Origin: a virus | Lineage: Duplodnaviria > Heunggongvirae > Uroviricota > Caudoviricetes | DNA: 18,744 bases | Direction: 5' to 3' (one strand) | IMG/VR virus record: IMGVR_UViG_2636415906_000001 | Shown here: positions 1,465-14,694 of the stretch, piece after piece | How the letters are laid out: each line of letters opens with the position of its first letter | How positions within the stretch are numbered: the first letter of the stretch is position 1 | Position numbers and translations under genes: made by a program | The notes under the pieces: generated by a model | The model's input: only the letters and a program-made list of their open reading frames with translations | Databases searched by the model: none | Told to the model about the DNA's origin: nothing

Positions 1465-1752
1465 TTACTGTCTCTGGCAATCTTTATCGCGATAACGCCT
1501 GAAGTACCCTCTCGCTTCCTCATCCATACCAAGAGCCGAATGAGTTCGCTTAACTGCCTGTCTTAAATCTCCGAATCTGTCTGTAGTTGCTGGTGGGCGT
1601 GCCGCCTTACGGATACATTCAGAGCGCCTGTTTGCTGCATGTTCACGTTCTTTATCGCCATTTGCCAGCATCATGACTTCTGCCCATCGTGCGGCAGCTC
1701 TCCGGTATAGCCCTTTTGACTCCAGCTCTTCAGCTTTCCTGTCCCTTATCAT
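1465..1752 (-). CDS. PerC-family transcriptional activator-like protein (95 aa)
   Basis: The motif AEELESKGLYRRAAARWAEVM resembles the conserved PerC-family core (AExLExxGL(W/Y)RRAAxRW) common in P4-like and prophage islands. Basic small protein. Family assignment is from memory. Confidence 0.55.
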   Translation of the reverse strand: MIRDRKAEELESKGLYRRAAARWAEVMMLANGDKEREHAANRRSECIRKAARPPATTDRFGDLRQAVKRTHSALGMDEEARGYFRRYRDKDCQRQ

Positions 1753-1788: not shown

Positions 1789-1909
1789 GTTGGTTCAGTT
1801 GGTTCAGTTGGTTCAATTTGTAAAGGGTATTGTTTTTATTGTGTTTTTTCTAAAATATTGAACCAACATCAACTCATTTTGAACCAACACAGCCCAGCTC
1901 TGAACCAAC
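1789..1909. repeat. Iteron array: three tandem GTTGGTTCA 9-mers, then three inverted copies (TGAACCAAC) at exact 21-bp spacing
   Basis: Tandem copies at 1789-1797, 1798-1806 and 1807-1815. Reverse-complement copies at 1859-1867, 1880-1888 and 1901-1909. The array sits in the divergent intergenic region between the PerC-like and RHH genes. Confidence 0.85.
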
Positions 1910-2011: not shown

Positions 2012-2467
2012 ATGGTCTTTGCAATGAGCAAATCTAATCTGGTCGCGTTCCGCATCCCATCTGAATTGCAGGATGAGTTTAATCGGTCTGTTCTCGCTTC
2101 TGGAGGGGATAAAACCTCCTGGCTTGTTGATGCGATTCGCATGAAGCTGGGGCAGCCGGAAAAGTCTATTGATTCACGAATGCTTGGGCTGGTGGAGCGC
2201 ATGGAAAAAGCCGCTGCGTCGCTTATTGCCGGAAAGCCGAACATCCCACCAAAACCATATAACGAAACGGCAGTTATAAAGATCATTGCCGATACCATCC
2301 AACAGGGATTTGATAATGGGCGTGTGATAGCTGAACGGATCAATGAAGCAGGCTATCAAACAAAAGCTGGTAAAGCGTGGGATAAAGATATTTACAGCGC
2401 GTGGAAGCGTCAGGGAAGCAATGCTGAAAAGTTATCAGTGGCGCTACATTCAGCGCCATCGCTATAA
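2012..2467 (+). CDS. Ribbon-helix-helix (Arc/MetJ/CopG-like) DNA-binding protein with a C-terminal extension; alternative start at ATG 2024
   Basis: N-terminus NLVAFRIPSELQDEFNRSVLASGGDKTSWLVDAIRMKL has the beta-strand plus two-helix pattern of RHH regulators. No clear Shine-Dalgarno, so the start is ambiguous. Convergent with the Abi gene, 1 bp apart. Confidence 0.55.
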   Translation: MVFAMSKSNLVAFRIPSELQDEFNRSVLASGGDKTSWLVDAIRMKLGQPEKSIDSRMLGLVERMEKAAASLIAGKPNIPPKPYNETAVIKIIADTIQQGFDNGRVIAERINEAGYQTKAGKAWDKDIYSAWKRQGSNAEKLSVALHSAPSL

Positions 2468-2468
2468 T

Positions 2469-3431
2469 TTATTCAATATCAAATAAATGCCTTGGGAAAC
2501 CGTTATTATCAGGTAATCCCATGGCTGTCAGGTTACATCCTGGTAAGTTAGGCTTGTTATCTACAAGGTTGGCAACTTTTTTTATCCAGTCAGATCCCGG
2601 TCCAATTTTTTTCACTAAAAACCATAACACAGCGATCATTCCGTACATTCTTTCGTACGCATCATCATTCATATTTAATTGCTCAAAGTACGGCTCATTT
2701 GGCAAAGGCATTAATCTTGGTTCGTTGACCTTGTTCCAGATGCGTGAATGGTGAGCGCACCGATTCCTTAGCACATTCATTGCGCTAAGCCAGTTTTGGA
2801 AGATAGCTCCATTGCCTGCCGCTATCCCTAGCCTAGATAGTATCCTGTTGCGATAGCTGTCTTTTAGCATCGCATAATACTTTGACATTAAGCCGAAGTC
2901 CCATACTTCAATAACCACCCAGAAAGGAAGACCTTCGTACTTGTTTTCATGCCATTTGATAAAGTCTTCGCGACTTTTAGCAATCTCGGCATTATGTTTA
3001 TTTATCCATTCTTCTCTGGCGCTTGGGCGACCATGGGAACGTGGTCTAAAGTGTTTTGGATTTATTAGCGAGTCATCAAGATATGCTAAAGGAGATATCT
3101 TACCAAGCTCATGAGCAATAACTGACCGAACATAAACCTCAATGCGTTCTAACGCATTCATCATCTGCAAACGCAGATTTTTATCGAATAAATAGAGGTC
3201 ATATACTGCGCGAAAATTAGTACCTGGACGAACCTGATCGAGTCTGGTTCTAATATTGTCTGTTGTTATATGGGGGATTCGGCAGGGGTACCAAAAGCCT
3301 GATAATCGGTAGTAGCCTACTTGTGAGATTTTCTTGATAGCATGTTCGCGATCTGGCACATCCATACCCCGAGACAGCAATAAATCGACAAGTTCATCAT
3401 ATTCTTTATGAACCTTAACCGGAACAGCCAT
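2469..3431 (-). CDS. Abortive-infection protein, Abi_2 family (AbiD/AbiF/AbiD1-like), 320 aa
   Basis: Abi_2 hallmarks as I recall them: N-terminal EYDELVDLLLSRGM...GYYRLSGFW and the central motif LRNRCAHHSRIWN. The gene is visibly AT-rich compared with the core operon. Confidence 0.85.
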   Translation of the reverse strand: MAVPVKVHKEYDELVDLLLSRGMDVPDREHAIKKISQVGYYRLSGFWYPCRIPHITTDNIRTRLDQVRPGTNFRAVYDLYLFDKNLRLQMMNALERIEVYVRSVIAHELGKISPLAYLDDSLINPKHFRPRSHGRPSAREEWINKHNAEIAKSREDFIKWHENKYEGLPFWVVIEVWDFGLMSKYYAMLKDSYRNRILSRLGIAAGNGAIFQNWLSAMNVLRNRCAHHSRIWNKVNEPRLMPLPNEPYFEQLNMNDDAYERMYGMIAVLWFLVKKIGPGSDWIKKVANLVDNKPNLPGCNLTAMGLPDNNGFPRHLFDIE

Positions 3432-4681: not shown

Positions 4682-6799
4682 CTAGTCATTATCTGGATCA
4701 TTAGATAGCCAAGTAATGATGCCCAGTCTGGCGATGGTCCGTTTTTCCTGTTCAGGAAGAGAGTTAAAAAAACTCTTCCATTGAGGGGAGCGCCTGATAC
4801 GTGAATCAACAATGTGCCCAGGCGCTTTTCCGTGTAGATTTTTTACTGCGCTCTGGAAGGCTGGCGAGGCAATTAATTTATCCGCAGCATCAGCCGCCCC
4901 TGCTCCACCAGCTAATCGAGCTTTACTCGCCAATCTTGCTCCAATATCAGCCCCAGCAATGGCTCCAAGCGATCCAAAATGAGCGCCTACCATCGTGCCT
5001 ATTTTTTGAATGTGTTTTGCTGCTAGTTCGTATGGAGCTGTTACCCGATTAAATCTGTTTACAAACTCATTCAGCTTACCAGTAGATATTTCATGCGCTT
5101 TAGCATTTTTTATTGCTCTGGCAACTTTGTATACATCATATAGTCCGCTCATTGTTTCTTTTGGCAAATGTTCAGCCAAAGTCTTTAGCTGTCCACTGTG
5201 TTGCAAGTTTTGCCACCAATCTGCAAAGCCAGATGGATTAAAGTCGGCCCCACGCTTCCCAGAGGAAAGCATATCTCTTAATGCTGTTCCTACTAGCTCC
5301 CTTCGCAATGTTCTTGATGGAGTATTTTGCATAATCTCACGAAACCCTCTCGCATCACCTTTTGCCATAGATTGAAGAGAATTCGTTACTTTATACGCTA
5401 TATCCCCATTAAGTGTTTTCCCGCGAAGATTTACCATTTGCCTTTCTAAGTTTTTTCTCATAGCTACAAGGCGTTGTGCGACTTCGAAATCTCGCAAGTA
5501 TCCAGTATTGGATAAGACAGATTTTTGGTCTTCAGCTAAAGCTCCATATAGTCTTGATAGCGCTTCTTTATCAGCATCTTTGTATGGCCCCTGCTTTTTA
5601 TTTAGGGCATCACCAACTAAACGCCTTTGCCTGTTTAAATTTGCATACGTTAGGATGCTATCTGGGCCGGGGTTTATTGCTGTAAAAACTCGCTTTTCTA
5701 TTGGGTCAAGATTATCCCACCCTCCTAAATCATCAGCGATTTTTTCCAGCATAGTGCTTGTGTTATTTGCTTCGACTTTTGTTCTTGGTGATAGAGCGGA
5801 ATCAACACGTTTATATAACTGATCACTACGGTTTTTTAGTGCTTCCATTCTACTATTTATCTGATAAATATATTTTTCGCTCATAGCTAACGCATCTGGC
5901 GCACCAGCAACATCATCGATTATCTTGCCAGCACTAGAGGCTAATTCGCTTATTGCTTTATCTTCTTGAGCTTTTAACGCTGATCCTGTCCGTGACTTTA
6001 GGGCTTGCTCTACAGCTTGGTATTGCTCATTTCCTGATAAATGAGAAGGAAGAACTGAATCAACATGAAGCCTATTTGCAGCCTCAACAATTTCTTTCTG
6101 AGGTTTTAGATCTAGCCCTTCAAGCGAAGAGGCAAGATTTGGGTTGCCTTGTGCAGATAACTTACGAATTTTCTCTTCGGCAGGAGTAATCCCCTCAATA
6201 TCTGGAATCGAAGAAACATTCTTCTTGGTTAATTTCCCAGCTATTTTATTAATTGCAGGGCCAGCAAGTTCGGCTACAGGGCCAGCCACAGCGCCAATAG
6301 CAGCGCCGGAAGCAACATCGCTATTTGTTCCATTGGCTACAATAGCCCCTTCTCCAGCACCAAGCCCTGCGGCGGCAGCCAGTCTTGCCGCCCCTTTGGG
6401 AACCTGAGAAATAATCCCACCACCACTAACAAATGGCGCTGCTTGTCCAACGAACTCACCAACATCTTGTGCGGTTGATGGTTTTGCCGCTAACTTCTGC
6501 TGTAGAGACTGAATTGCGGCTTGCTCTTCTGGTGTCATATCCTGAAACAGGCCAACACCTTTACCAACATCCATCAATCCACTGAGAACGCCATACATAA
6601 AACGGTCGAAACCGTTAGCATTATTAACAACATTTTCCTGTCTGGAATTTTCCTCTGGTGAAACCAAAGGTGATTGCTGCTGTTCTGGTTGGGCATCAAG
6701 CACAAAACCATCAGGAAGCTGTGAACTATCAGGAAACTGTGAGTTATCAGGTTGTTCATCGAGCACAAAACCTTCCGGTAAGATTACATTTGCTGCCAT
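4682..6799 (-). CDS. Large hypothetical protein (705 aa): acidic repeat N-terminus, Gly/Ala-rich segment, coiled-coil-like middle; no recognisable enzymatic motif
   Basis: Long uninterrupted ORF with ATG start at 6797-6799, overlapping the upstream 451-aa gene by 16 nt (translational coupling). N-terminus LPEGFVLDEQPDNSQFPDSSQLPDGFVLDAQPEQQQ; AAAAGLGAGEGAIVANG...GAVAGPVAELAGP tract. No signal peptide or Walker motif seen. Confidence 0.8.
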   Translation of the reverse strand: MAANVILPEGFVLDEQPDNSQFPDSSQLPDGFVLDAQPEQQQSPLVSPEENSRQENVVNNANGFDRFMYGVLSGLMDVGKGVGLFQDMTPEEQAAIQSLQQKLAAKPSTAQDVGEFVGQAAPFVSGGGIISQVPKGAARLAAAAGLGAGEGAIVANGTNSDVASGAAIGAVAGPVAELAGPAINKIAGKLTKKNVSSIPDIEGITPAEEKIRKLSAQGNPNLASSLEGLDLKPQKEIVEAANRLHVDSVLPSHLSGNEQYQAVEQALKSRTGSALKAQEDKAISELASSAGKIIDDVAGAPDALAMSEKYIYQINSRMEALKNRSDQLYKRVDSALSPRTKVEANNTSTMLEKIADDLGGWDNLDPIEKRVFTAINPGPDSILTYANLNRQRRLVGDALNKKQGPYKDADKEALSRLYGALAEDQKSVLSNTGYLRDFEVAQRLVAMRKNLERQMVNLRGKTLNGDIAYKVTNSLQSMAKGDARGFREIMQNTPSRTLRRELVGTALRDMLSSGKRGADFNPSGFADWWQNLQHSGQLKTLAEHLPKETMSGLYDVYKVARAIKNAKAHEISTGKLNEFVNRFNRVTAPYELAAKHIQKIGTMVGAHFGSLGAIAGADIGARLASKARLAGGAGAADAADKLIASPAFQSAVKNLHGKAPGHIVDSRIRRSPQWKSFFNSLPEQEKRTIARLGIITWLSNDPDND

Positions 6800-8127
6800 T
6801 TTCCGTTCCTGTAAATGATTTTCTGACCAGTTTTAGGGTTGGTTGCCGTTGCGCCTTCTGATATTCCTCCGGTTGCCGCTTTTGCCTGTCCAGTGCCAGC
6901 CTGTGATGTAGGCTGCCCGGAAACATCGTCAAATAGCTTCGCTTTCCTTCTTTCAAGGCTTTTTCTTAGCCCCTGAGGAATAGTTTCTCCATATGTATCG
7001 AGATACTCGTCAACCTGCTGGTTAAACTGCTGCCCCATAGCATTGGCGTTGATTTTTGCGGCGTTAACAATGTTATCCTTTGCCTCCTGCGACAGGCCGT
7101 TTCCAGCATTAAGCTGGTCTATGTATCCTTTGATTTGTCCCCATATGCCATCAGACCGCATTACCTGAACCTGTTCGCCTTCACGAACGACTGACTGCGG
7201 GTCAAGAGATTTCATGTAGTTGAAGATAATCCCAAGTTGGGCAGCGCCAGTATTTACCTTGCTAAGGGCTTGCAGAGAGTTTGCCGCCGCTCTGACAGAG
7301 TTATAATTTTTGCCAAAATTGGTAATGTCAGAATTTAATCCCTTAATTAAGTCTGCTGACGGCTTACCTTTTTGCCCCAGCTCCATTAGCTTCAATCCCA
7401 TCTCATCTGAGTGAATTTGTGCTCGCTGAGCCCTGTCTAGTTGAGCGTTCTGGATATTTGCCCATCCTCTCGCGTTCTCCATGTCAGCCTGACGCATACT
7501 TTCATCCAGTCGCCCTTGCTCAAGTCGACGACCTTCCATTTGATCTTTGATATCGAAATACTTCTCATGACCGAGAGAAAACAGCGCCAGATTACCTGCG
7601 AAATGCTGGAAGCCCTGCGGGTCATTAACCTGCATTTCAGCAATAGTTTCTGGAGGGATACCTAAACGACGCATCTCCTGCTCATTATCCATCATGAACC
7701 TGCCAAATGCGCCCTGACCAAGCGATGAGGCTACCTGTGCTTTGAGCGCCAGATTGCCATAATCATCCCTTTGAGCATCATCGACATAACTCATCCCTTT
7801 ACGGACTTCCTCAAACTCTTCTGGGAATGCTGTAATAAGATTACGCATCTGCTCCCTGTCACCGGACGCATAAGCATCTGCATAACCTTTCTGGAATGCC
7901 GCTTTACGCTCCTGCTGTTGCTGCTGCTTATAAATATCAGCAACTCCAGCCAGACCACGAAGACCTGTCAGAGCAACGTTATTTGCACCTGATCGAGCCA
8001 GTTCATTGTTTTCGCGGATCAGACCAAGCGTTGCGTTAATGTCGCTTGCCTTTGGCGCATTCTCATTTTGCGTACCGATGCCAGCCAGAAAACCACCAGA
8101 ATTAATACCCTGTTGCCACGTAGCCAT
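6784..8127 (-). CDS. Hypothetical coiled-coil, Gln-rich protein (about 447 aa from ATG 8127; ORF track extends to GTG 8139)
   Basis: Long ORF; the ATG at 8125-8127 overlaps the stop of the upstream 57-aa ORF. QQQQQ run and low-complexity A/Q/N/G-rich sequence. No enzymatic motif recognised. Confidence 0.8.
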   Translation of the reverse strand: MATWQQGINSGGFLAGIGTQNENAPKASDINATLGLIRENNELARSGANNVALTGLRGLAGVADIYKQQQQQERKAAFQKGYADAYASGDREQMRNLITAFPEEFEEVRKGMSYVDDAQRDDYGNLALKAQVASSLGQGAFGRFMMDNEQEMRRLGIPPETIAEMQVNDPQGFQHFAGNLALFSLGHEKYFDIKDQMEGRRLEQGRLDESMRQADMENARGWANIQNAQLDRAQRAQIHSDEMGLKLMELGQKGKPSADLIKGLNSDITNFGKNYNSVRAAANSLQALSKVNTGAAQLGIIFNYMKSLDPQSVVREGEQVQVMRSDGIWGQIKGYIDQLNAGNGLSQEAKDNIVNAAKINANAMGQQFNQQVDEYLDTYGETIPQGLRKSLERRKAKLFDDVSGQPTSQAGTGQAKAATGGISEGATATNPKTGQKIIYRNGKWQQM

Positions 8128-8131
8128 AAAT

Positions 8132-8305
8132 TTACCCACGTCCAGTTAAAGTGTAAGCCAGCGCCTTATCCATTAATCCCCGAGCAATTTCGTGGATCGT
8201 TGGCGCAACTCCTACCTCTGATTTTTTACGCTGCTCCTCCTGAATTTTCTTTATCGCTTCCATTTGCTTCTCACTTATCAATACTGGCTTTACTGAAATA
8301 GCCAT
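8132..8305 (-). CDS. Small protein (57 aa, MAISVKPVLISEKQMEAIKKIQEEQRKKSEVGVAPTIHEIARGLMDKALAYTLTGRG), first gene of the operon; possibly RHH-like
   Basis: Below the ORF-track length cutoff; translated by hand. Strong RBS AAGGGGG 4-5 nt upstream of ATG 8303-8305. The stop overlaps the start of the 451-aa gene. Confidence 0.5.
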   Translation of the reverse strand: MAISVKPVLISEKQMEAIKKIQEEQRKKSEVGVAPTIHEIARGLMDKALAYTLTGRG

Positions 8306-8433: not shown

Positions 8434-8803
8434 CGTTCTGTATGTCAGGTTTTGACAGTTTTTTTATGGACTCTAAAAACTATATTTATGGAGTCGCATT
8501 ACTCTTCACGGCAGGCGCTTTCCAGTTCTGCCCTTGCTTCTGGCTCCATTGGTAATTTGATTCGCGATCAGCTATGCGGATGGTTTGCTGAACAGGCATA
8601 ACAACATCTCAGAGGCTATTTTTTGAACTACGAAAATTTCGTAGTGCTCACCTTCAAAAACGTCACGCCCTTGTACACTGGATTTTACAAAAGTCTCGTA
8701 AAACTCTTTGCTGTTCTGGGCTATGTGCCAAACCGCAGCGAATACCTCCGTCTGCCAGATGAGCAAAACATACCTTATAAAGAAAATCGCTGTTTTTGCT
8801 GTA

Positions 8804-8902
8804 CCACCTGTACCACCATGTCACAAACCCTTGTGTGGCGCGGCCTGCAGGTGGTACAGGTGGGTAAAAATGACCTCTCCCCACCTGTACAGACCTGTAC
8901 CA
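8804..8902. repeat. Cluster 1 of the GGTGGTACAGGT(GG) motif in both orientations
   Basis: Copies read at 8804-8817 (rc), 8850-8863 (fwd), 8881-8892 and 8893-8902 (rc, partial), immediately downstream of the 245-aa gene. Confidence 0.75.
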
Positions 8903-8907
8903 TTTAT

Positions 8908-9645
8908 TTAATTTTTACCCATAGCAGCACATAATCCCTTTTTTGAAATATTGAAAAATGCGTTCATTCTTCCCGCTGGCTTAACCTTGTAGCCGCTTGC
9001 CACCATCGCCGCAATAAATGCTCCGTTGGGGATATAGTGCGGGTGATCACTGTGCTGGTGGTTTATCTGGTTATATCGCTCCACTTCATGCTTCAACGTG
9101 TCAGATGTGGGGTTATCCTGCGGGAAGCTCTCAATCTGGGCATTACTCATCCCGTTGTCTCTGATCCATCTCAGGCAGCTTTTCGCCGATACGATAAATG
9201 ACGGGTTATCAAGCGGGTTTTCCCAGTCCGCATTCCGGTTGTGGAGCGCCAGTCCGTCAAGGTTAAATTGTGGGTATTCAGCGGTAATTACTGTCACTGC
9301 GTGGCGGATTTCAGTTTCGTCACAACATGGCTCATCTCCCACACCAGCAGGGTAATAATCTGAACCACCGGGACTGATACAGCTTTTACCACTGAAAGGC
9401 CATTGCTTCGCCATTTCGGGTGTTGAGTGATTACCGTCGCTCCGTTCGCGCTGTGCCTCTGTCCACTGGCTGGCATATTCAGTAAATGAAACTCTTTGCC
9501 CCTGGCGCATCCAGTGCGCAATCATAATTAAAGTGCGTTCCAGACTTTGGATGTCGCCAGCATTCCCGCACTGTGTAGCGAAACTTTTTAATTCTTCGCG
9601 CTCCGTTCTGGTCATTCCCTGCAGTATGCAATAGTTATTGTTCAT
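8908..9645 (-). CDS. Hypothetical protein (245 aa)
   Basis: ORF overlapping the upstream 76-aa gene by 11 nt. No family recognised. Confidence 0.65.
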   Translation of the reverse strand: MNNNYCILQGMTRTEREELKSFATQCGNAGDIQSLERTLIMIAHWMRQGQRVSFTEYASQWTEAQRERSDGNHSTPEMAKQWPFSGKSCISPGGSDYYPAGVGDEPCCDETEIRHAVTVITAEYPQFNLDGLALHNRNADWENPLDNPSFIVSAKSCLRWIRDNGMSNAQIESFPQDNPTSDTLKHEVERYNQINHQHSDHPHYIPNGAFIAAMVASGYKVKPAGRMNAFFNISKKGLCAAMGKN

Positions 9646-9865
9646 GTTTTACCTCTCTGATTTCTGCTGCCATATCTGTTGGCTCTATACAGCCGTCCCG
9701 ACTTGCCACGCAGGGAATAATGATTTCAACGGTATCGCCGTCAATACACATTTCAACATTCGCCCATGCCGCAATGGGTAGCCAGTCTGAACGCCCCTCA
9801 AACCGTAGCTGCCAGCCAGAGGAAGAAGCTAACTGGCGCACTTTGTAAAATGGTGTGCTCATCAT
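9635..9865 (-). CDS. Hypothetical small protein (76 aa)
   Basis: ORF with GAGG about 10 nt upstream of ATG. First gene after the primase-proximal motif cluster. Confidence 0.55.
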   Translation of the reverse strand: MMSTPFYKVRQLASSSGWQLRFEGRSDWLPIAAWANVEMCIDGDTVEIIIPCVASRDGCIEPTDMAAEIREVKHEQ

Positions 9866-9915
9866 TGGTTGTTTCCTCTCAGCCAGCCAGAAGAAATGCG
9901 TTTGTTAATGGTATA

Positions 9916-10012
9916 GGTGGTACAGGTCTGGTATAGGTAAGATATTGACCTGTACCACTATAACGCACTGTTTTTAATACTGAATTAGCAAAGTGGTATA
10001 GGTGGTACAGGT
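9916..10012. repeat. Cluster 2 of the GGTGGTACAGGT motif, between the primase stop and the next gene
   Basis: Copies at 9916-9927 (fwd), 9948-9958 (rc) and 10001-10012 (fwd), plus repeated GGTATAGGT. The same motif as cluster 1, about 1.1 kb away. Confidence 0.75.
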
Positions 10013-10041
10013 AAAAACGATCTTCTTGTAAAAAGACTATA

Positions 10042-12393
10042 TTAAAAAACATCATAACCCCCCATACCGATCAGACGGGCAAACGCAGCCTGTAGAACTC
10101 CGACCTCTGGTAGTTCGTAGAACACGCCATTCCCTCGGTCTGGTCTTCCATGCTTCACCAGCCCCATTTGTGCAAGTGATTTACCCAGTAGTGATCTGGC
10201 TGCTGGCTCTTTAAGCTTTTCCCCACGCTCAAGCGACCACGCTACAAATCGACTAACCATATCCTTTGCAAACAAACGGACTTCGCCATTAAACGGAGGT
10301 TCATTGATTAGCTCGCCATAAAGAAACAATTCAACGCCAGACAGCCCCAGCAAGATTTCTTCACGTAAGGCATCGGTCTGTGGCGCTCGTTGAGGGTCAA
10401 AACCTGAGAGATCCACCCCTTTAAGATGCCAAAGCAACTTTGCGGCACCGCCATCATTAAGCCAACTGTACAGCCGATCAAAATACTCCCGACTCTGTGC
10501 TTTTTCAGGAGATGGCTCAAGCACGAGATAGCGACGCTCTCTTATCCCTGCCTGTAATACCTGTGTGCTGTTACTGGCAAATATCAACCGGGCAAAATTC
10601 GGCATTGGTTCAGCATCAATTCCCTTGCGCTCAAGGTTAAACGTCGGTTCGCTAATAATCGCTTTAAGTCTGTCAGCTTCAGACGGCTTGTGGATCGTCA
10701 CTTCGTCAGCAAATACCAGTAGCTTGTTAGCAAGTATTGAATTGAAGCGCCCTGAAATATGTCCCGCCCCGTTAATGTGGGCGGCGTACTGCCCCAGTAT
10801 TTGCAGCAGCGGTTTAACCGTTGTGCCTTTCCCTGTGCCCGGGACAGATTTCATCACGATTGCCACGGACGGTTTTTCATCAGGCTTTTGGATAATGTGC
10901 GCCATCCACTGGATAAGATATTGGTATGCCTCCTCATTACCGGCACAGACAACCTGCAACAGGTGATTAAGGTATACCGTGCAATCTCCTTCAATTGGTT
11001 CCAGTGCCAGCCCCTCATACAGATTAAAAACATCGTCAGGGCATTTGTCTGGTACTGGATAAAATCCTACGCCTCCTGGCTTGTAGTTCTTCCCACTCCA
11101 TGACAGCCACGCCGATCCCGCCAGCTTTCTGGCGACTCTCGGTTTATGATGAAAATAATGCTGAAATTGTGATAAATCCTCGAAAACGTGCGATACACCG
11201 CCGGTTTGAGAAGGCTTTAGCGACACCACCTTGTGTTTCCCGCCGATGGTGACATGCGTAAACGTCCGGTTGATTTCTTCGAGGACAGCAATTTCATCAT
11301 CGCTTAACACCTCGCCAGAACTGATCTCATTCAGCGCCCCGACTGACTGTTTGTGATTTTTCACCTGCGCCCCTTTCCCCCGTGGCTGGTACATCGAATC
11401 TTTAAATGCTGCTGTGGCTGCCGCCAGCCCGTGTTGTTGGTGATAGTCGTTCCAGTCGGCTTTATAGTCAGTCGGTGGCAGAGACACCCAGCCAGCTACG
11501 GAAATAGCGGCCCTCTCTGCGGCATCTTTCCCCGTGTTGATCCCTCCACTTTCGGAGTTTCCTTGCTGGTGATCGTTATCTGCGGCAATGATGATTTGTG
11601 CCTGTGGATATGTTCTGCGCATGACTTCCGCTACTGGCAACAGGTTGCCAGCGTCGATTGCTGCCACTGTCATTGCGTCAGGGCGAATTAAATGGCACGA
11701 CAGGGCGGTAGCCACCCCCTCAGCAATTATGATGCTGTGAGGTCGTTTCTGTGCGTTTATGGCGTGATATGCCCCCCGCTTTGCTGAACCTGTCAGGAGT
11801 CTTTTTTCACCATGTGAGGTAATAGTCTGTGCTGCTGTTACTGCGCCGGATTTATCCACCAGCGCCAGCAACAGAGATCCATCGGGCAACACGGGGAATG
11901 TAAAATCACCTACCCCTTTCGCAACCAGATAATCAGATTTGCCGTTTACAGCCTTTCTGCGCATGTCATCAAACTGACGGGAAAACGTATCCCGTCTTTG
12001 TTGTTCGTCCTTCTCTGCCCTTTTCAGGCGCTCCTGTTCGCGTCGCTGGCGCTCGGTTTCCAGTTGTTCCCGTTTCTGGCTGGTGGCTTCTGGTGTTTCC
12101 GTTGTCCGGTAATCAATACCCAGAACATCAGCGGCAAGAAGCGCCGCCTCTGTTGTGTCGCAGTTATTTACGCGTTTAATTAAATCCAGCCCATCACCAG
12201 CGCCGCACTGATTACAGATGAAGCTACCGCGCCCGTTGTCATCGAACCGGAATCGATCTTTGCCCCCACATGCAGGGCAGGGAGCATGACGGCGCGGAGA
12301 GTCAGGGACATTTATGTTCAGGCAGCCCAGCACATGAGGCCAGTTGTTTTCAGACGCACTGATAACCTGACGGATAAGATCAATGTTTCGCAT
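10042..12393 (-). CDS. P4 alpha-like primase-helicase (zinc-binding N-terminus, TOPRIM primase, C-terminal P-loop NTPase/helicase), 783 aa
   Basis: Cys-rich motif CPACGG...CNQCG near the N-terminus; toprim-like IIIAEGVATALS and AADNDHQ; Walker A VPGTGKGT in the C-terminal half. This is the typical P4-family satellite replication protein architecture. Confidence 0.9.
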   Translation of the reverse strand: MRNIDLIRQVISASENNWPHVLGCLNINVPDSPRRHAPCPACGGKDRFRFDDNGRGSFICNQCGAGDGLDLIKRVNNCDTTEAALLAADVLGIDYRTTETPEATSQKREQLETERQRREQERLKRAEKDEQQRRDTFSRQFDDMRRKAVNGKSDYLVAKGVGDFTFPVLPDGSLLLALVDKSGAVTAAQTITSHGEKRLLTGSAKRGAYHAINAQKRPHSIIIAEGVATALSCHLIRPDAMTVAAIDAGNLLPVAEVMRRTYPQAQIIIAADNDHQQGNSESGGINTGKDAAERAAISVAGWVSLPPTDYKADWNDYHQQHGLAAATAAFKDSMYQPRGKGAQVKNHKQSVGALNEISSGEVLSDDEIAVLEEINRTFTHVTIGGKHKVVSLKPSQTGGVSHVFEDLSQFQHYFHHKPRVARKLAGSAWLSWSGKNYKPGGVGFYPVPDKCPDDVFNLYEGLALEPIEGDCTVYLNHLLQVVCAGNEEAYQYLIQWMAHIIQKPDEKPSVAIVMKSVPGTGKGTTVKPLLQILGQYAAHINGAGHISGRFNSILANKLLVFADEVTIHKPSEADRLKAIISEPTFNLERKGIDAEPMPNFARLIFASNSTQVLQAGIRERRYLVLEPSPEKAQSREYFDRLYSWLNDGGAAKLLWHLKGVDLSGFDPQRAPQTDALREEILLGLSGVELFLYGELINEPPFNGEVRLFAKDMVSRFVAWSLERGEKLKEPAARSLLGKSLAQMGLVKHGRPDRGNGVFYELPEVGVLQAAFARLIGMGGYDVF

Positions 12394-12405: not shown

Positions 12406-13008
12406 TTAGTGCGTCACTGGTGCTTCTGGGATGCCGTTTTCGTTTAGTTCGGCAATAAAGCTGTTGTGAAGATCGGCAAGCACTTCTCGCCCAAACGAAG
12501 TGAGTGTTCCCTGTTCGACATCGAACATGTTGCTGTAAAAAATGATGGCATTCTTTGTTCCGACATCAACACCATATTTCTCGATCATTGCGCCCTCAAT
12601 GTTGTTTGCCATAGCGAGGCGCTCTGCTACTGGATACAGCGGCATGGCGACGATGCCATTGGAATAAACAGAAACCACGGAATGATTGCCACTGTCATCA
12701 ATAATGCTGACGGTGCCGTTTTCCTTTCTCATTTCATTGATGAATGCTGTTGCTATCAGCCAGCGCCACATAATCACGTGATGCTGTGATGTGTAATCGA
12801 AATATCCCTGGTTGCCGCCATCGGCTATAGCGAGATGTATTGACATACCTTCATCTGGTTTATCGTCATAATCCCCGGCATCCAGACGATTTACGGCATC
12901 AATATATGAGACGGTCTCAACGCGTTCTGTCATGCCATCGTTGCTGCGGTGCATGATGTTTACGCCGTCAGGCGTTGCTTCTGCCTGGAAAGTTAAGAAA
13001 TTATTCAT
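12406..13008 (-). CDS. Hypothetical protein (about 200 aa from ATG 13008; ORF track extends to 13113)
   Basis: The ATG at 13006-13008 overlaps the upstream gene's stop by 8 nt. Located 12 nt upstream of the primase start. Confidence 0.6.
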   Translation of the reverse strand: MNNFLTFQAEATPDGVNIMHRSNDGMTERVETVSYIDAVNRLDAGDYDDKPDEGMSIHLAIADGGNQGYFDYTSQHHVIMWRWLIATAFINEMRKENGTVSIIDDSGNHSVVSVYSNGIVAMPLYPVAERLAMANNIEGAMIEKYGVDVGTKNAIIFYSNMFDVEQGTLTSFGREVLADLHNSFIAELNENGIPEAPVTH

Positions 13009-13482: not shown

Positions 13483-13673
13483 TTTTCACCCCCAAGAATT
13501 ACCAGCTCGGCACGGGCATCGTTAACCAAAGATGAGCACGCTTTAATCGCATCCACGACATCAGCAGCGTCCATTTCTTCAGCCGAAAGACTGACAGCAA
13601 CCAGGACATCCGCTGCTTGCTCGATTAATTGAAGTGCGGACGTAAGGCGAGGGGTATTAATTGAGTTATTCAT
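13479..13673 (-). CDS. Hypothetical small acidic protein (about 64 aa from ATG 13673)
   Basis: The internal ATG at 13671-13673 overlaps the stop (13666-13668) of the upstream 342-aa ORF; the ORF track's longer version would overlap that gene. Confidence 0.5.
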   Translation of the reverse strand: MNNSINTPRLTSALQLIEQAADVLVAVSLSAEEMDAADVVDAIKACSSLVNDARAELVILGGEK

Positions 13674-14694
13674 TGGTTGCCCCCGTTTTGCATGGCATTT
13701 GTCCACCTTCCAGCAGGAAATGAACGTCACGAACGGCGAGATCCAATATCGCGAGTAACGCCTTCAGCCTTTCGTCTCGTGAGGGAGAGTTGCTCACCAG
13801 AATGTCGTTAATCACTTCTGTCAGTGTGATGATCTGGCTTGTGCGTTCGAGGGGATCCATATGCACATCGTAGGTTTTAATCATGTGCCACCTCCATGCG
13901 GATACGACCAGCAAAAAAGCAGACGTGATCGCGCACCAGAGAACGGCGAGCATCGCGTTCAGACTCGGCAGCAATATGATGAATTTTGGCGGTAATTGTC
14001 GGGCAATCGCGGCGAACTGCGGCGATAATCCAGATAAATTGCGGTTTTTGGGTAGGGGTAGTAGCCAGCATGTGGCAGCCTCCTTGATTGATGGTTTATA
14101 GCCACCGCCCAAGAGACCAATCTTGCTGGCGGTGGACTGTACGGAGTTGGCCTTACTGGCAATCAAGGAAACCAGCCTACCCGAAGGTAGCCCCATACAG
14201 CCCACCATTGATAAGGTGTGCGTGTGCGCCGATACAAAAAAAGACGCTGGCGCGTCATGTATCGCCTCGATTGTCAGCGGGAGGCCAATCCCGGCACCCG
14301 TTTTATGAGGTGCCTTATAACCATAAACCGTGTTGCCGCATAACGGCAAGCTCTTTTTTATGGACTCCGAAAACTCACTATTGGAAGAACCAGAAGCACA
14401 GTACATCGCGCTCATTTCGTTAACGTCACGCGCATGGACGAAGGTTTTTGTGGAGTCACTACGCGAGAAGAGAAAGCCATCTACGACCAGAAATTCTCTG
14501 GCGCAGCCGCTGACCTTCTCAACGCTAACACCATCGACCGTAATTTCTGACATGGTTAAGGCATCCGCTCCTACCACCAGCAAATGACAAACTTTGCTTG
14601 TATCTGCTGTATTAATGCCTGACTTTGCTGTCATATTGCTGGATTTTGGCGACATACCAGCCAGTGAAAATATCTTCTTCTGGACGGTTAGCAT
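13666..14694 (-). CDS. Hypothetical protein (342 aa); Ser/Thr/Gly-rich N-terminal two-thirds, hydrophobic segment, C-terminal helical tail
   Basis: Long uninterrupted ORF with GGAGG RBS 8 nt upstream of ATG 14694. No family recognised. Composition changes along its length, so a sequencing frameshift or fused domains cannot be excluded. Confidence 0.5.

Follow-up and report, generated by a model that had tools for sequence, protein, structure and literature searches.

The array of six 9-mers at 1789-1909 of the window, by which is meant the whole 18,744-bp stretch of DNA analysed in this study, is probably the distal core of a replication origin for a DUF927-type Rep, orphaned when the helicase and its iterons were exchanged as a cassette, rather than an operator of the neighbouring genes. 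That it is an iteron array of the origin type, cognate to DUF927 helicases, is very likely; that it is now functionless for the island that carries it is also favoured, with less assurance.

The array consists of six exact copies of GTTGGTTCA, and no further exact copies were found when all 18,744 bp were searched. Three perfect tandem copies with a 9-bp period (1789-1797, 1798-1806 and 1807-1815, plus strand) would form the outer end of the origin core. They are followed by a 43-bp spacer (ATTTGTAAAG...TTGTTTT, 1816-1858) and then by three spaced, inverted copies on the minus strand (1859-1867, 1880-1888 and 1901-1909), which read TGAACCAAC, the reverse complement of GTTGGTTCA, on the plus strand and are set 21 and 21 bp apart from start to start. 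The spacer is 81% A+T compared with 54% across the window, and is a candidate DNA-unwinding region. Only 0.14 copies of GTTGGTTCA per window would be expected by chance, and none of 200 dinucleotide-preserving shuffles reached six. The ordered array of three tandem and three inverted units described in an earlier note on this DNA was thus recovered in full, and its statement that such regularity exceeds chance holds against the shuffles. The same note read the 21-bp spacing (two helical turns) as a sign of cooperative binding on one face of the helix, which would suit an origin equally well.

The window represents a P4-style integrative island of E. coli located between dinD and yicC, and is 100% identical to NZ_CM129861. 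The yicC-dinD interval is a PICI attachment site according to the supplement of PMC6092414; the published yicC-dinD att core, GAGCAGATTCAA, was not found in the window. On the minus strand the gene order is integrase, AlpA-like HTH protein, AntA/DUF4222/Ash, primase-helicase, P22-type DNA-ejection homologues with Abi_2, and perC at the far end. Two P4-type immunity RNAs, the C4 antisense RNA (14125-14212, minus strand, 79 bits) and isrK (14237-14313, minus strand, 65 bits), scored above the Rfam gathering thresholds and constitute a likeness to P4; both fall within a long "Ash family protein" ORF (13666-14694). The cargo at 4682-8139 and 2469-3431 (both minus strand) includes an abortive-infection protein, Abi_2, and P22-type DNA-ejection (injectosome) homologues (PF16928; phrog "DNA transfer protein"); by comparison with the 12-kb sister L001, this block is inserted. 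On the stretch from perC to the dinD end lies a 40-nt direct repeat (CCTAACCCATTGATTCTT..., 1312-1351 and 1354-1393, 80% identity, spaced 42 bp), which may be a sign of the island boundary or of arm sites for the integrase. Related islands have been deposited as circular "plasmids" of 12-19 kb (L001, NZ_CP148430.1, 12 kb; L003, NZ_CP069874.1; L005, CP031370.2); these small circles are probably excised, replicating satellite forms caught in assemblies. L003 encodes capsid, portal and protease, like capsid-forming PICI.

The layout of the array is that of a PICI-type origin. PICI and SaPI origins lie directly 3' of rep and consist of opposed iteron sets, to which the C-terminal domain of Rep binds, with A+T-rich DNA between them (PMC6092414; PMC9371898). 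In the SaPI origin two or more iterons stand on each side of the A+T-rich centre, in opposite directions (PMC9371898), and the SaPI Reps are self-loading initiator-helicases whose C-terminal winged-helix domain binds the iterons just downstream of rep (PMC9371898). The window array shares with these origins the opposed iterons around an A+T-rich centre and, in homologous islands, the immediate 3' position and a Rep/Cch-family initiator. The origin of EcCICFT073, which has been tested, was read here as a CTRTCTACC tandem pair from 14 bp after the stop codon, an A+T-rich stretch, inverted copies and a closing inverted tandem pair; its layout and 9-bp period are those of the window array, and its 9-mer is different. 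SaPI iterons are also shorter, being 5-6 nt compared with 9 nt here. The window copy differs further from known PICI and SaPI origins in being inverted, beside perC and 8 kb from a helicase gene of another type with other iterons. By analogy, the array would be an origin core in which inverted iteron sets flank an A+T-rich melting region, and GTTGGTTCA would be the cognate site of DUF927-type initiator-helicases. The initiator C-terminal domain would bind the iterons on both sides, the A+T-rich centre would melt and the helicase would load itself, a mechanism that is established for the SaPI Reps and presumed to operate here.

Plasmid origins built on iterons (pPS10, RK2, F) and the operator arrays of RHH proteins (omega, ParG, Arc/Mnt) also have phased short direct repeats and cooperative binding in common with the window array. 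The window, in contrast to these systems, is without a Rep_3-type initiator or a partition ATPase, no DnaA boxes were identified in it, and comparison ties its repeats to a helicase rather than to the RHH-like gene nearby.

That tie came from a search for the iteron in related elements, a check suggested in the earlier note, which decided between the operator and the replication reading. Scanning IMG/VR for two tandem GTTGGTTCA units gave 120 loci, with 93 clusters of at least three exact copies. Seventy-four of these clusters sit 27-89 bp (median 45) beyond the 3' end of a gene for a DUF927-type helicase and seven adjoin perC, the other 12 being at locus edges or probably chance matches. The DUF927-type helicases at the 74 loci are 63-100% identical to that of L001, with varying N-terminal domains and integrases. 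In DNA searches, several Klebsiella records match the window in the array alone. The 9-mers begin 25 bp after the primase-helicase stop codon in the 19-kb Klebsiella circle L005, and fill the space after the primase-helicase gene in the 16-kb Klebsiella circle L003, where no PerC or RHH gene is adjacent; the A+T-rich spacer is similar in both. Homology extends to both parts of the array: the tandem triplet of the window is homologous to triplets starting 25-30 bp after DUF927 helicase stop codons, and its spacer aligns (alignment A1) with the helicase-proximal origin spacers of L001, L005, L025 and L054. The DUF927 half of the L001 protein (DUF927 Rep WP_075362680.1) has its matches in PDB 8tch (E=1e-11), a "Pathogenicity island protein", and in 5dgk, the Cch helicase of SCCmec, with a weak match to the NCBIfam Cch1 model; judging from these matches, DUF927-type helicases are related to the SaPI Rep and Cch self-loading helicases. 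One locus outside this pattern is L103, where a canonical array of three tandem and three spaced copies at 12857-12977 lies 8 kb from the helicase-proximal array of the same island and adjoins a chloramphenicol acetyltransferase-like ORF, not perC.

The primase-helicase of the window itself (10042-12393, minus strand) is of another type, with matches to Zn-ribbon, Toprim and DUF5906 domains. Its N-terminal 351 amino acids are 85% identical to the L001 protein, and in protein comparison its DUF5906 C-terminal half has no detectable similarity to the DUF927 half. No DUF927 match, and hence no cognate initiator on the same element, was found anywhere in the window; the cognate DUF927 initiator is encoded by the sister islands L001, L175, L176 and L179. 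Nor is the GTTGGTTCA array directly 3' of the window's helicase gene, as cargo genes separate it from the stop codon (10042), which is about 8.1 kb away. That position is occupied by a second iteron family. Six copies of TGGTAYAGG (five direct and one inverted, with a 9-bp tandem period) are arranged at 9909-10011 around a stretch of 71% A+T, 30 bp after the DUF5906 helicase stop codon, and a second TGGTAYAGG cluster (ACCTGTACCA/TGGTACAGG, in both orientations) lies at 8795-8902, 1.1 kb from the first. Iterons of this family follow the gene at every DUF5906 locus, including L153, where the helicase is only 52% identical. From its position and composition, the set at 9909-10011 is a candidate cognate origin for the window's own helicase, and the two TGGTAYAGG clusters together are likely the true origin of the island in a P4-like two-site layout.

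Mapped by blastn against L001, a replication cassette of 2.7 kb (8708-11371, minus strand), made up of the DUF5906 half, two small genes and both TGGTAYAGG clusters, stands in for L001 5457-7388, that is, for the DUF927 half with its proximal GTTGGTTCA array. The flanks are 96-99% identical, and the array on the perC side falls outside the exchanged cassette. The two iteron families are alike (TTGGTTCAG compared with GTGGTACAG), with seven of nine positions identical in the best register. A 9-bp tandem period and a common core are in fact shared by the iterons of three unrelated-looking helicase types, the third core being GGTAGACAG in reverse complement (window 1789-1815 and 9909-9935; L172 7510-7527), a hint that the DNA-binding domains of these helicases may be distantly related.

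In DUF927 islands that have perC, the GTTGGTTCA iteron stands at two sites. A helicase-proximal array and an inverted distal array beside perC were found in L001, L156, L157, L160, L162, L166, L175, L176 and L179; the window has GTTGGTTCA at the distal site only, and its own two-site iteron is TGGTAYAGG (9909-10011 and 8795-8902). The window copy would accordingly correspond in place to the distal, inverted second copy beside perC, at the far end of the island. In the Klebsiella islands both cores lie back to back within a single origin of 260-290 bp, so the E. coli layout resembles a bipartite origin whose halves have been driven apart by inserted genes. The pair of proximal and distal arrays in the E. 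coli sister islands may be seen as parallel to ori and crr of phage P4, in which crr directly follows the alpha gene, ori is 4.7 kb away in a divergent intergenic region, and the 8-mer TGTTCACC occurs at both sites in both orientations (X51522 annotation). Both P4 sites have been proven necessary. The window retains only the distal site of the old GTTGGTTCA pair. The N-terminal primase of P4 alpha is homologous to that of the island (34% identity over about 335 aa), whereas its helicase half resembles the EcCICFT073 protein and neither the DUF927 nor the DUF5906 helicase.

The state of the distal array follows the type of helicase. Among islands found regardless of array state (nine DUF927 and eight DUF5906), the distal array is canonical, with three tandem and three spaced copies, in all nine DUF927 islands, and the distal tandem counts in the eight DUF5906 islands are 3, 3, 3, 4, 2, 2, 0 and 0 (canonical state by helicase type, Fisher one-sided p=0.009, uncorrected for shared ancestry). 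The zero counts are due to a 107-bp deletion that removed the tandem triplet, the spacer and one spaced copy and left both ORFs intact. The deletions of L169 and L170 were considered as independent events and rejected as such, since they have a common junction and a nearby SNP; they were counted as one event, and the changes in copy number together with the deletion trace to as few as three independent events. Four additional genomes with deviant arrays (the deletion in three of them, two tandem copies in the other), chosen for being deviant and fetched as a test of the prediction, all proved to be DUF5906 islands. An identical 107-bp deletion was also observed at two chromosomal sites, in L170 and L180 (yicC-dinD) and in L181 and L182 (pao/ykgJ side), with two perC alleles; the island therefore moved or recombined after the deletion arose. 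Six islands with intact arrays, sampled at random, comprised three DUF5906 and three DUF927 islands, so the non-cognate combination is common.

These observations are best accounted for by recombination that would have exchanged the DUF927 half and the proximal array for the DUF5906 half with its own TGGTAYAGG iterons. The distal array would have been left behind, unused by the island's own replication protein and free to drift or vanish. The GTTGGTTCA array is most likely an orphan because the half of the initiator to which it belongs, together with the proximal array, has been replaced by a helicase half that brought iterons of its own. Decay is not universal, since the window copy is perfect (six of six exact), as are the arrays in three of the eight DUF5906 islands found regardless of array state. 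With the whole module 95-99% identical from strain to strain, point mutations have had little time to reveal relaxed selection. A second version of the distal array preserves the three iterons and their 21-bp register amid unrelated inter-iteron sequences, which points to selection on the iterons themselves. Given that about half of the sampled intact arrays occur in DUF5906 islands, the array could also have a use independent of the DUF927 protein.

One such use would be as a working cis site, a second origin or enhancer comparable to P4 ori/crr, read, by virtue of the related iteron core, by the DUF5906 helicase that the island encodes. Since the two iteron families share seven of nine positions in the best register, this helicase might still recognise the array. 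The perfect window copy, the intact arrays in DUF5906 islands (half of those sampled) and P4, as a precedent for a true origin at a distal site between divergent genes, all speak for it. Nevertheless, this reading is unlikely. The gene-proximal iteron is always that of the helicase's own family, at 74 DUF927 loci and at seven DUF5906 loci including the 52%-identical one; the DUF5906 cassette already carries two clusters of its own iteron; and drift in copy number and deletion are confined to DUF5906 islands, with the deletion-bearing island present at two attachment sites.

Alternatively, the distal array may be a deliberate second landing pad for the DUF927 initiator, although we consider this improbable. 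In DUF927 islands it would couple the induction of replication to expression of perC, a homologue of a virulence regulator. In DUF5906 islands it would allow the initiator of a co-resident rival to amplify the island, or would titrate that initiator. An effect on perC of initiator bound at the array, next to a probable promoter, is speculation. A related and likewise doubtful proposal is that a sister island resident in the same cell supplies a DUF927 Rep in trans and that the array is its target, with co-replication, titration of a competitor's initiator, or coupling of perC to satellite induction as the outcome. Sibling islands often coexist, as E. coli genomes with this region have a median of two and up to six places matching it; the iteron sequence and register are kept against diverged spacers, and the tandem triplet abuts the likely perC promoter. 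Against this, the genome identical to the window has only one place that matches the region, and strong selection is made less likely by the drift and deletion seen in DUF5906 islands.

The main reading of the earlier note was that the array, bound cooperatively by a protein, is probably the control region of the cargo; as an operator, it would serve the RHH-like protein and/or PerC in controlling the divergent perC and RHH promoters. The genes on either side were described there as both encoding small proteins of the DNA-binding type. For the PerC-family gene (1465-1752, minus strand) this is confirmed by Pfam (PF06069, E=3e-33). The divergent 147-aa gene (2024-2467, plus strand) has no Pfam or NCBIfam match and only a weak match to phrog_30270 (function unknown), and the resemblance of its N-terminal sequence to ribbon-helix-helix proteins is by eye; the RHH label was not confirmed by Pfam, NCBIfam or PHROGs. 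The array does occupy the divergent intergenic region. Its tandem triplet (1789-1815) is 37 bp upstream of the perC start codon (1752) and 18 bp from a perfect TATAAT on the perC strand (1771-1766, minus strand), although a scan of 1400-2100 for sigma-70 promoter and terminator consensus found no full site beyond this lone TATAAT. The 5' end of perC and the array also form a conserved module that moves together across perC alleles, and RHH proteins bind cooperatively to tandem or inverted short repeats.

Even so, an operator is a poor explanation of the array, and the co-occurrence of repeat and regulator across relatives that an RHH or PerC operator would lead one to expect was not observed. 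At 74 of the 93 IMG/VR arrays the same repeats and A+T-rich spacer are present with neither a PerC nor an RHH gene adjoining. Arrays on the perC side without the RHH gene are common (L161, L157, L159, L165 and L166), and perC homologues have no array upstream in L088, L099 and EcCICFT073. The RHH-like gene already has a palindrome of its own, a perfect GTATAACA-G-TGTTATAC at 1963-1979 followed by another GTATAC, between the array and the gene and about 45 bp upstream of the latter. This palindrome is a candidate for a separate operator of the RHH-like gene, judging by its symmetry and position, and it is kept in the array-deletion variants. The 107-bp deletion of the array spares both ORFs, in islands at two chromosomal sites, and the state of the array follows the helicase type and not the neighbouring genes. 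On these comparisons the RHH-like gene is a neighbour of the array and dispensable for its presence. The alternative offered in the same note, a replication or partition-like site, fared better in its first half, which is borne out by the position of the array after DUF927 helicase genes and by spacer homology. Its second half, a plasmid-style partition (centromere) site for an RHH-type centromere-binding protein, was rejected as extremely improbable: arrays of short repeats beside an RHH-like gene do resemble type Ib/II par loci and a related island is recorded as a 12-kb circle, but no ParA or ParM-family match was found by Pfam among window ORFs of at least 80 aa, the array mostly occurs without the RHH-like gene, and its position and spacer match those of origins.

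The architecture of PICI origins and the two-site origin of P4 are already known. A full-text literature search for the 9-mer returned unrelated primers and oligonucleotides only; PMC6092414 draws E. coli PICI iterons in a figure, and its supplements do not list them. Within the literature searched, the assignment of the 9-mer to DUF927 helicases, the split proximal and distal layout beside perC, and the orphan state after the swap appear to be new, three modest additions to a known kind of element.

With the array taken as an orphaned distal origin core, an apparent regulatory site is reassigned to the replication machinery of a phage satellite, which is a caution against annotating such arrays as operators. 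If the landing-pad reading were true, it would mean cross-talk or piracy at the level of the origin between satellites in one cell. The comparison also points to a two-site origin layout, proximal and distal, in one PICI lineage, parallel to P4 ori/crr. Among these E. coli islands, the initiator's helicase half has been exchanged jointly with its iterons, as one cassette, and this amounts to a natural experiment, in which the distal array is invariant with its cognate helicase and drifts or is deleted where the helicase has been swapped. Because the constancy of the distal array depends on the helicase, the assignment of helicase to iteron is supported from sequence alone.
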